Source of the DNA: an uncultured Bacteriovoracaceae bacterium
GTDB taxonomy: Bacteria > Bdellovibrionota > UBA2394
NCBI GenBank assembly: GCA_964655245.1
Contig: CAZZLQ010000004.1
Coordinates: forward strand, 3,456 to 67,455
Direction of reading: 5' to 3'
Length of the DNA: 64,000 nucleotides
Shown: piece after piece, positions 62,290 through 64,000 of the stretch
Layout: every line of letters starts with the position of its first letter
Position numbering within the stretch: position 1 is the stretch's first letter
Notes under the pieces: model-generated
The model's input: only the letters and a program-made list of their open reading frames with translations
Told to the model about the DNA's origin: nothing
The model's database searches: none
Program-made: the position numbers and the translations under genes

Positions 62290-64000
62290 GTGTTGCGTAT
62301 TAACGCCAACATAGCCTCCCTGCGCACTCAGACGCAGATGCAACGCACCTCCAAGGCGCTTCAGCGCGCTCTTGAGCGCTTGTCCTCGGGCCAAAGAATC
62401 AACTCCGCTCGAGATGATGCCTCAGGTCTTGCTCGAGGTGTGGGCCTTGAGTCGCAGGTTCGTGGCTTGAACCGAGCCATTCTCAATATGAATGAAGCAC
62501 AGGGAATGCTGATGACGGCCGAGGGGGCCTTGCAGACGCAGGTTGATCTCGTTCAGAGAATGCGTGAGCTTGCAGTGCAAGCGGCCAATGGCACACTGAC
62601 TTCGAACGATCGCGCCAATCTGGATCAAGAACTTCAGTCCCTACTCGCAGAGTTTAATCGTATAACACAAGATACGACGTTCAATGGAGCAGCCCTTTTG
62701 GATGGAAGTCTGGGAACTCAAAAGATTCAGGTTGGGACGGAGAAGAATCAGAGTGTTGATCTTAAGATGAGATCGATGGGGGCATCGGGAGTATTTCGAA
62801 AGGACGTGGGCTCGGGAGCGTTCACTCAGACGTCAACTCTTGCGGTGAATGGAACTGTCTCGATGAGCGAATTTGCAGATCTCAATGGAGATGGTCATTT
62901 GGATCTCATCGTGGCGACAGAATTGGGTTTTCAAGTTCTTGATGGCAAAGGAGACGGAACATTTGCCGTCGCAAGAACTGTGTTTGCGGGGTTCGTAGAC
63001 AATAATTTTGGCTTCGAAAACTACAACCGCTTCGCCGTGGGAGATGTCACCGGAGATGGAAATCTCGACATCGTCTTCAATGGATCCGCAGTTCTTGCGG
63101 GTGATGGCCGAGGGGGCTTCGGAGAAGAAACTGGTGGTCAGGTACCTCAGGGCAACATACAGCTGGCGGATTTCAATGGAGATGGAGCTCTCGATATCGT
63201 CACGAGCAATGTCTTCGGTGTGTTGAATTTCATTACTTTGAGCGATGGGAATGGTGGATTTTTGAGTCCAGAGAATCTTGGAGATACGCCCAATGGAGGA
63301 TCGGCCGTGGTTGGGGACTTCAATAGCGATGGTCATCAAGATGTCATCATCCTGAATCGGAATTTTAACTCCGTTACACTTTACGCTGGAAACGGAACCG
63401 GCGAGTTGGTGGAGACTGTCAGCAGCTTTCTAGTTGGTTCCACATATCCCACATTGTTTGAGGTAAGTGATTTTGATTCTGATGGCGATCTAGACCTGAT
63501 CTTGGGGGATGGAGTGACCGTGCGATTGGCGACTAACAATGGAAGTGGGAGCTTTGTTGCATCCTCAACGGCCTACTCCATGGGAGCGATTGTTCAGGAT
63601 ATCAGGTCTCAGGATCTCAATGATGATGGACGAGTTGATCTTGTTGTAAAGACCGACTCATCGATCTCTGTATCATTGGGTCAGGGTGGTGGAGTTTTCT
63701 CATCGAGAGTCACTGTTGCTTCAGGACTAAATGCCTTTGCCCTTGGCGATGTCACCGGTGATGGGGTTGTGGATTTTTTTGGTAGCTCTGGTAGCTCTGC
63801 CTTGGTTTATGCGGCTGTGTTAACAACGGCTGCAGCTGACAATGAAGTACGCATTCAGACCCAAGAACAGGCAGAGAAACTTTTAGGAATCTTGGATAAC
63901 GCGATTGATCGGATTTCCGAGGAGAGATCAAATCTCGGAGCCCTTTCTCATCGCCTCGACTATGCTCAGTCCGTTACCTCTCAGACTCGTGAAAATCTCG
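62290..64000 (+). CDS. fliC: Flagellin; its central variable region is replaced by a 7-repeat FG-GAP beta-propeller domain. 3'-truncated by the window edge.
   Basis: Translated manually; it is absent from the ORF track because there is no stop in the window. RBS aaggagg at 62281-62287, then a GTG (or TTG) start. The N-terminal D0/D1 reads LRINANIASLRTQTQMQRTSKALQRALERLSSGQRINSARDDASGL...LVQRMRELAVQAANGTLTSNDRANLDQELQSLLAEFNRI. The C-terminal D1 reads QEQAEKLLGILDNAIDRISEERSNLGALSHRLDYAQSVTSQTRENL. Between them are seven DxNxDGxxD repeats (FADLNGDGHLDLIVA, VGDVTGDGNLDIVF, LADFNGDGALDIVTS, VGDFNSDGHQDVIIL, VSDFDSDGDLDLIL, SQDLNDDGRVDLVV, LGDVTGDGVVDFF). Confidence 0.8.
   Translation, partial: MLRINANIASLRTQTQMQRTSKALQRALERLSSGQRINSARDDASGLARGVGLESQVRGLNRAILNMNEAQGMLMTAEGALQTQVDLVQRMRELAVQAANGTLTSNDRANLDQELQSLLAEFNRITQDTTFNGAALLDGSLGTQKIQVGTEKNQSVDLKMRSMGASGVFRKDVGSGAFTQTSTLAVNGTVSMSEFADLNGDGHLDLIVATELGFQVLDGKGDGTFAVARTVFAGFVDNNFGFENYNRFAVGDVTGDGNLDIVFNGSAVLAGDGRGGFGEETGGQVPQGNIQLADFNGDGALDIVTSNVFGVLNFITLSDGNGGFLSPENLGDTPNGGSAVVGDFNSDGHQDVIILNRNFNSVTLYAGNGTGELVETVSSFLVGSTYPTLFEVSDFDSDGDLDLILGDGVTVRLATNNGSGSFVASSTAYSMGAIVQDIRSQDLNDDGRVDLVVKTDSSISVSLGQGGGVFSSRVTVASGLNAFALGDVTGDGVVDFFGSSGSSALVYAAVLTTAAADNEVRIQTQEQAEKLLGILDNAIDRISEERSNLGALSHRLDYAQSVTSQTRENL

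Follow-up and report, generated by a model that had tools for sequence, protein, structure and literature searches.

A flagellum faces the environment with the outer domains of its flagellins, and the majority of the folds found there have had no experimental study. An AlphaFold survey by Fields et al. (2024, Nat Commun, PMC11532411) sorted these domains into 682 clusters, for one of which ("WD40-repeats in cluster #55") the authors note, in one sentence and without experiments, cellular homologues, suggesting co-option from cellular proteins. A propeller at the outer-domain position of a flagellin has thus been noticed before. The gene considered here lies at the right-hand end of a stretch of 64,000 nucleotides (hereafter the window) from contig CAZZLQ010000004.1 of an uncultured Bacteriovoracaceae bacterium. 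It probably encodes a filament-type flagellin of about 619 amino acids (about 65 kDa), in which domains D2/D3 are replaced by a closed seven-bladed FG-GAP beta-propeller with a calcium-type loop in each blade.

The window gene resembles cluster #55 in having a beta-propeller in the outer-domain position. The survey does not mention FG-GAP, VCBS, integrin or Bdellovibrio, however, and its sample consisted only of UniProt entries named "flagellin", whereas none of the 120 best database clusters of the window family has a UniRef source, the names at NCBI being "VCBS repeat-containing protein" or "hypothetical". Cluster #55 was compared by its description alone; against that description the window family differs in that the WD40 models of Pfam find no match in the window protein or in its rescanned family. 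Full-text searches of the literature found no description of an FG-GAP, VCBS or seven-bladed propeller in a flagellin.

Folded domains of other kinds are displayed on flagellar filaments. According to Eckhard et al. (2017, PMC5595980), members of the flagellinolysin family assemble into filaments displaying the inserted domain, and, as in the window gene, the foreign folded domain occupies the hypervariable region while D0/D1 are kept. The difference is in the insert, which in the window gene is a non-catalytic repeat propeller and not an HExxH metallopeptidase. No HExxH motif is present in the window protein when its sequence is read directly, and the flagella_HExxH model (NF033876), whose cut-off is 205 bits, reaches 40 bits over 57 core residues only.

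Within the same phylum, Bdellovibrio bacteriovorus builds one filament from six flagellins, FliC1-6, of 29-31 kDa (Iida et al. 2009, PMC2791853). That system is alike in having several flagellin genes for one filament, but FliC1-6 lack an outer domain and are enclosed in a membrane sheath, whereas the window flagellin, of about 65 kDa, includes a propeller of 35 kDa.

Outside the flagellins, the propellers of integrin-alpha, CRTAC1, ITFG2 and TcB share 13-17% sequence identity with the window insert. Integrins carry the calcium-type loop in three or four blades. The window propeller has it in all seven, has no disulfides, and is inserted in a flagellin rather than forming part of a receptor. 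The closest solved proteins are the lectins PVL, AAL2 and PAL, which have in common with it the seven-blade fold, a shift of one strand between repeats and blades, calcium sites and a size of about 51 x 27 A (PMC4483166), but the residues of their N-acetylglucosamine (GlcNAc) pocket (Asn/Asp, Trp and His of the segment that connects the blades) are absent from the window insert.

The Flagellin Core

Reading frame 1 is open from position 62290 onward, with 570 codons and no stop before the window ends. The gene runs off the edge and for that reason is missing from the list of open reading frames (ORFs), as had been recognized in the first-pass annotation, which was made by a model from the sequence of the window alone. 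Its remainder can be read from P0001, a database protein of 643 amino acids that is 100% identical to the visible part, and the entire gene is present on L001, a Logan contig of 3.4 kb. Counted from the GTG at 62290, the full gene encodes 619 amino acids and ends about 149 nt past the window. The last full codon in the window corresponds to residue 594 of P0001, leaving 49 residues beyond it, somewhat more than the 40 or so first estimated. These finish a canonical flagellin C-terminal D1/D0 (...DADLAEETAELTRLQILQQAQASVLAQSNLSLRIALQLLSF), although the last residues are ...SLRIALQLLSF and not the ...LSLLR that had been expected.

Both ends of the protein are those of a flagellin, as the first-pass annotation had read them. 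The Pfam model Flagellin_N matches residues 4-140 of the window protein (profile positions 1-137 of 139, expectation value (E) 1e-37, 129 bits against a cut-off of 26.6). Flagellin_C matches residues 532-569 with profile positions 1-38 of 86, and in the full-length P0001 it is complete, with 86 of 86 positions at residues 556-641, 60.7 bits, and the terminus ...QILQQAQASVLAQSNLSLRIALQLLSF. The C-terminal D0 helix, whose absence downstream would have pointed to some other kind of fusion protein, is therefore in place.

An AlphaFold2 model of the full-length protein (mean predicted local distance difference test score (pLDDT) 85.4, predicted template modelling score (pTM) 0.72) has an all-beta region of 29 strands set between long helices. 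The N-terminal core helices are modelled at P0001 residues 32-57, 64-123 and 129-152 (pLDDT 83-96), the C-terminal ones at 549-602 and 606-642. The best Foldseek matches to the full model are flagellins of solved filaments (Azotobacter, Salmonella, E. coli, H. pylori, Vibrio; E 1e-19 to 1e-13); these matches cover the core only, and no propeller was found in the solved flagellins.

To score the core by itself, the two ends of the protein were joined without the propeller in a D0/D1-only construct of 270 amino acids. Flagellin models match this construct with 227.6, 211 and 198 bits, the highest of these scores belonging to PRK12802, which is aligned end to end; the models LafA and PRK12807 are also aligned over their full length. 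The construct reaches no flagellin equivalog cut-off, and the protein therefore belongs to a divergent flagellin subfamily.

The Inserted Propeller

Between the two halves of the core, FG-GAP_3 of Pfam matches six stretches (E 1e-32, 110-112 bits against a cut-off of 26.9) and FG-GAP matches with E 1e-14 (53-54 bits, cut-off 22.1). When the 348 amino acids of the insert were modelled alone, with an alignment of 71 sequences, pLDDT rose to 92.3 and pTM to 0.90. All Foldseek matches to the insert are seven-bladed FG-GAP propellers: the best are the fungal integrin-like lectins AAL2, PVL and PAL (E 1e-12, template modelling score 0.61-0.64), and further ones are CRTAC1, ITFG2, BBS1, UmbA4, TcB and integrin alphaV. 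By sequence, the insert matches only AAL2, PVL and PAL in the PDB (E 2e-11 to 3e-4). The initial suggestion of a seven-bladed FG-GAP propeller is borne out.

The loops are at P0001 positions 221, 276, 318, 367, 418, 466 and 511, a spacing of 42-55 amino acids. They had been described as seven loops of the form DxNxDGxxD; the count is right, but only five fit the strict pattern D-x-[DN]-x-[DN]-G-x-x-D, the other two reading DxTxDGxxD. The DxTGDGxxD form of the loop is also found in the repeats of AAL2 and PVL. In composition-preserving shuffles of the insert, strict motifs arise 0.014 times on average. Conservation across the 71 homologues is highest at the loops, whose D, N, D, G and D positions each reach at least 70%. 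At that same threshold 62 of the 346 propeller columns are conserved, and 60 of these make up the seven G.G.G.F and seven D.N.DG..D motifs.

The first G.G.F motif sits before loop 1 and none comes after loop 7, which implies a velcro-type closure with an offset of one strand. Such an offset between repeats and blades has been described for AAL2 (PMC4483166). As modelled, the insert is one closed seven-bladed FG-GAP propeller with four-stranded blades, its ring closed by the N-terminal strand. The domain is very acidic, and its composition includes 34 Asp, no Cys, no Trp, and two His, both inside calcium loops. Coordinates of these and other features are collected in Table 1.

Table 1. Features of the propeller flagellin gene and its upstream region. 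Positions are those of the window; L082 is a more distant locus of the same family.
Feature	Position	Strand	Basis
Flagellin coding sequence, cut at window edge	62290..64000	+	Translation; identity of visible part to P0001; whole gene in L001
N-terminal D0/D1 helical core, including D1 beta-hairpin	62290..62793	+	Pfam Flagellin_N, model helices, Foldseek
Seven-bladed FG-GAP beta-propeller (modelled), 348 amino acids, 35.4 kDa, isoelectric point 4.05, at D2/D3 insertion point	62794..63837	+	
Calcium-type loop 1, DLNGDGHLD	62878..62904	+	Motif scan; family columns
Calcium-type loop 2, DVTGDGNLD, Thr at position 3 (family consensus Asn)	63043..63069	+	Motif scan; family columns
Calcium-type loop 3, DFNGDGALD	63169..63195	+	Motif scan; family columns
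Calcium-type loop 4, DFNSDGHQD	63316..63342	+	Motif scan; family columns
Calcium-type loop 5, DFDSDGDLD	63469..63495	+	Motif scan; family columns
Calcium-type loop 6, DLNDDGRVD	63613..63639	+	Motif scan; family columns
Calcium-type loop 7, DVTGDGVVD, Thr at position 3	63748..63774	+	Motif scan; family columns
Start of C-terminal D1 helix (remaining D1 and D0 outside window)	63838..64000	+	Flagellin_C, model helices
Shine-Dalgarno sequence AAGGAGG, 2 nt before GTG 62290 and 5 nt before TTG 62293	62281..62287	+	Read from sequence
Conserved non-coding element, 32 nt, GAATGTGTCGAAATTATCGACAATTTGATGCG	62236..62267	+	Two matching copies in L082

A Large Family with a Constant Core and a Variable Propeller

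The window flagellin is a member of a large family that is widespread in an uncultured lineage of Bdellovibrionota. Family clusters were counted at the 90% identity level, and the figures cover the best 120. Nearly all of these (more than 110) combine Flagellin_N, FG-GAP and Flagellin_C; most are about 610-650 amino acids long and about a dozen 690-990. The first-pass annotation, unaware of any description of an FG-GAP propeller in this position, had proposed a search of databases for flagellins with FG-GAP inserts. No paper was found that names FG-GAP there; in databases the architecture is common, all three domains occurring in 71 of the 71 homologues tested. Among these rescanned homologues FG-GAP_3 is found in all 71 and FG-GAP in 70, and the insert is 348-385 amino acids long in 69. 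Seven is the commonest number of loops, found in 73 of the 120 best matches. Longer members of 700-990 amino acids (P0009, P0012, P0030, P0045, P0047, P0087, P0095, P0098, P0102) have 7-10 calcium-type loops, and they may contain extra blades or an additional domain.

Members with named hosts come only from Bacteriovoracaceae, Bdellovibrionales and "Deltaproteobacteria" metagenome-assembled genomes (MAGs). The biotin carboxylase encoded in the window likewise has its nearest counterparts in a "Deltaproteobacteria" MAG (75%) and a Bacteriovoracaceae MAG (74%). An alignment-based scan of genome contigs found mostly ordinary flagellins, only L002-L006 being members of the family. When a profile of the propeller was run against 1.8 billion representatives, the output was dominated by giant multi-propeller FG-GAP proteins of 900-7400 amino acids, and the common propeller module of such giant bacterial FG-GAP/VCBS proteins is a plausible source of the flagellin insert. 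The giant proteins (P0125-P0274) have 4-19 propeller-length stretches each.

The core and the propeller differ greatly in how well they are conserved. On average, family members share 52% and 48% identity with the window protein in the two parts of the core and 31% in the propeller; for P0003 the corresponding values are 84% (N-terminal core), 83% (C-terminal core) and 42% (propeller). Where propeller identity lies at 48-95%, that of the core is 97-100%. The contrast can be followed to silent sites in a comparison of the window gene, by way of L001, with that of a Bacteriovoracaceae MAG (L002, 3-1466). For the C-terminal core, identity is here 97% at the protein level and 91% at the DNA level; for the propeller the values are 48% and 53%. 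Identity at third codon positions of conserved residues falls from 0.76 in the C-terminal core to 0.41 in the propeller, the latter near saturation. This jump at silent sites points to different histories of the core and the center of the gene, beyond any relaxation of constraint. It suggests that the gene is a mosaic whose central cassette has been replaced by recombination, in an allele-like manner as in H-antigen fliC. Replacement of alleles or cassettes is known for H-antigen fliC genes. GC content is flat (0.48-0.52), and a compositional anomaly or horizontal transfer was rejected on that ground.

In the alignment of the 71 sequences, no propeller column outside the structural ones is conserved. 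What is constrained throughout the family is the fold and the residues of the calcium-type loops, while the surface is hypervariable. The family offers a natural set of variants in which the surface is swapped while the core stays constant.

Some genomes contain more than one flagellin at or near the family locus. L084, a related metagenomic contig, has two divergent genes for FG-GAP flagellins (7837-9705, minus strand, and 10001-11920, plus strand) and one for a plain flagellin of 270 amino acids (1871-2683, minus strand), all within 10 kb; the plain flagellin is 39% identical to the window core. L085 and L086 have an FG-GAP flagellin gene with a CheX gene in its vicinity, and then an unannotated ORF of at least 594 amino acids that extends to the end of the contig and may be a second copy of the FG-GAP flagellin.

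Proposed Role in the Filament

If the protein behaves as other flagellins do, it would pass the flagellar type III channel in unfolded form and would polymerize through D0/D1. Polymerization after type III export is a prediction from sequence, with indirect support from a core that is strongly conserved in comparison with the insert. The propeller would fold outside the cytoplasm, probably with calcium filling up to seven loops, and the low calcium of the cytosol could keep the domain export-competent until secretion. The propellers would then make up an acidic, calcium-loaded outer layer with a swappable surface, bringing the filament to a thickness of about 17-22 nm. My own arithmetic, based on the standard rise of about 4.7 A per subunit and on the size given for AAL2 (PMC4483166), is that a propeller of 51 x 27 A fits the approximately 2500 A2 available per subunit at a radius of 85 A, whence the thickness stated. 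The protein would probably be used together with short, plain flagellins in a filament of several flagellins.

Such a flagellin would be of some general use. A domain of 35 kDa, closed, very regular and well predicted, must fold after passing an export channel of 2 nm, and the seven calcium loops would provide it with a built-in and testable folding cofactor. It might serve as a model of post-export folding and as a scaffold for display on filaments. The window gene is a good example, though not an unprecedented one, of how foreign domains are recruited by flagellins, and it leaves that general picture unchanged.

A number of considerations weigh against the proposed role. It is derived from sequence, and a major, a minor or an unused flagellin would fit alike. 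Calcium binding by the loops is putative, being based on a motif from which two loops depart by a Thr at position 3. Genes for the flagellum or for chemotaxis are absent from the 64 kb of the window, no flagellar genes lie beside the family gene in L082, L083 or the contig of the homologue P0002, and in L085 and L086 only CheX is nearby. When the regions upstream of 8-10 family genes were scanned for sigma-28 (TAAA-N14-16-GCCGATAA) and sigma-54 (TGGCAC-N5-TTGCA) promoters, even the highest-scoring matches were no better than those in shuffled sequences. The lack of Cys, shared by 62 of the 71 family members, was considered as a signature of flagellar export and rejected as weakly informative, since bacterial FG-GAP proteins are poor in Cys anyway (a median of 0.65 per 350 amino acids). 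Finally, the cultured relatives B. bacteriovorus and Bacteriovorax have a single polar flagellum covered by a membrane sheath (PMC7175336). Inside a sheath the propeller would be covered by a membrane, an odd fit with its hypervariability, which argues for an exposed surface. The question raised is how Bdellovibrio-like bacteria would combine their membrane sheath with a propeller flagellin.

A bolder version of the filament role can be offered, though I consider it doubtful. The propeller might form a calcium-gated coat on the filament in a clade of uncultured predatory Bdellovibrionota, remaining unfolded at the low calcium of the cytoplasm and closing only after export (compare RTX repeats), exchanged between strains as a cassette (compare the H antigen), and providing a lineage-specific surface for binding or for escape from phages or grazers. 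Such a layer might replace the sheath or interact with it.

Other Explanations

The protein might also form no filament at all, its flagellin ends acting as an export signal or carrier for a soluble FG-GAP protein, or it might cap or decorate a short segment of filament. The gene does stand alone and distant from flagellar genes, its flagellar promoter is not recognizable, and plain short flagellins in the same genome (as in L084) could form a filament unaided. Flagellin genes, however, are commonly scattered away from flagellar clusters. Besides this, B. bacteriovorus has six fliC genes (PMC2791853). Export needs only the N-terminal segment, yet the whole of D0/D1, including the C-terminal helices of polymerization, is kept and strongly conserved, and the core aligns end to end with full flagellin models. 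I therefore regard this explanation as unlikely, and a filament-type flagellin as the better account of the core.

It had also been proposed at the outset that the filament displays thousands of copies of a ligand- or adhesin-binding propeller. In its most specific form, the propellers would bind sugars as do PVL and AAL2, and would anchor the cell on prey, particles or surfaces. GlcNAc lectins are indeed the only sequence matches of the insert in the PDB and its best structural matches, other FG-GAP propellers (those of integrins and UmbA4, for example) bind ligands, and a hypervariable surface could encode differing specificities. The likeness to the lectins is restricted to the repeat signature, however. 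Bdellovibrio attaches to its prey by the pole that has no flagellum. The sugar pocket of AAL2 needs, in each blade, Asn/Asp, Trp112 and His117 of the connecting segment (PMC4483166); as the insert lacks Trp and has both its His inside calcium loops, a GlcNAc site of the PVL/AAL2 type was rejected, and Trp is absent from 37 of the 71 homologues. No column of the propeller beyond the structural ones is held constant. Since the flagella of cultured relatives are sheathed (PMC7175336), a displayed adhesin is not a safe assumption. Display of a binding domain is thus unsupported by the residues of the propeller, and I judge an adhesin or lectin flagellin to be improbable.

A FlgL-like protein of the hook-filament junction with an insert, of which each flagellum would contain only about 11 copies, can be set aside as very improbable: several homologues are labelled "flagellin-like hook-associated protein FlgL" by the Joint Genome Institute (presumably a generic COG-style label) and FlgL models match weakly and partially, but TIGR02550 falls short of its cut-off of 127.2 with 107 bits and covers the N-terminal 122 residues only, whereas flagellin models reach 227.6 bits with end-to-end alignment, and two to three paralogues per genome are typical of flagellins.

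Start Codon and Upstream Region

The filament-type flagellin may start at GTG 62290 or TTG 62293, giving an N-terminus of (M)LRINANIASL or MRINANIASL, respectively. P0001 was instead called from ATG 62218, which adds an N-terminal extension of 24 residues (MSREGEECVEIIDNLMRRFRVKEV, window 62218-62289). The extension is not found in homologues, which begin MLRIN..., and confidence in the model is low there (residues 1-30 of P0001, block-mean pLDDT 40-59). It also overlaps the conserved non-coding element of Table 1, and in L082 there are stops in every frame there. From these three observations the real start is at 62290 or 62293, and the public gene call is probably mis-annotated, starting 24 codons too far upstream.

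The upstream element has the pattern GAATGTGT..RAATTATCRA.AATTT..GCG, with about 31 positions invariant between the window and L082. Its two copies in L082 (9751-9782 and 9929-9960) lie upstream of an FG-GAP flagellin gene whose product is only 38% identical to the window protein. The element may be a promoter, an operator or part of a 5' untranslated region. Scanning metagenomes with the element (GAATGTGTNNRAATTATCRA) gave 120 loci, none of which encodes a flagellin. As these are matches by chance, the element is so far found only in the window, L001 and L082.

Neighboring Genes

The flagellin gene is monocistronic, and no second flagellin was found in the window. Divergent from it, across a common intergenic region of 240 bp, is a gene for a subtilase (Peptidase_S8; 60601-62049, minus strand). 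A subtilase neighbor is found also in the contig of P0002 and not at more distant loci of the family.

A second protein with FG-GAP repeats, a predicted lipoprotein of 354 amino acids with the lipobox LTGC, is encoded 6 kb upstream (55899-56963, plus strand), and the same FG-GAP lipoprotein gene is present in the contig of a 95%-identical relative. It was considered as donor of the flagellin insert and rejected, the similarity being weak (E 0.005). Farther upstream on the plus strand (27299-30455 and 34759-36852) are genes for a histidine kinase and a sigma-54-dependent response regulator, and then for a secretin with an AMIN domain, which is probably the type IV pilus secretin PilQ.

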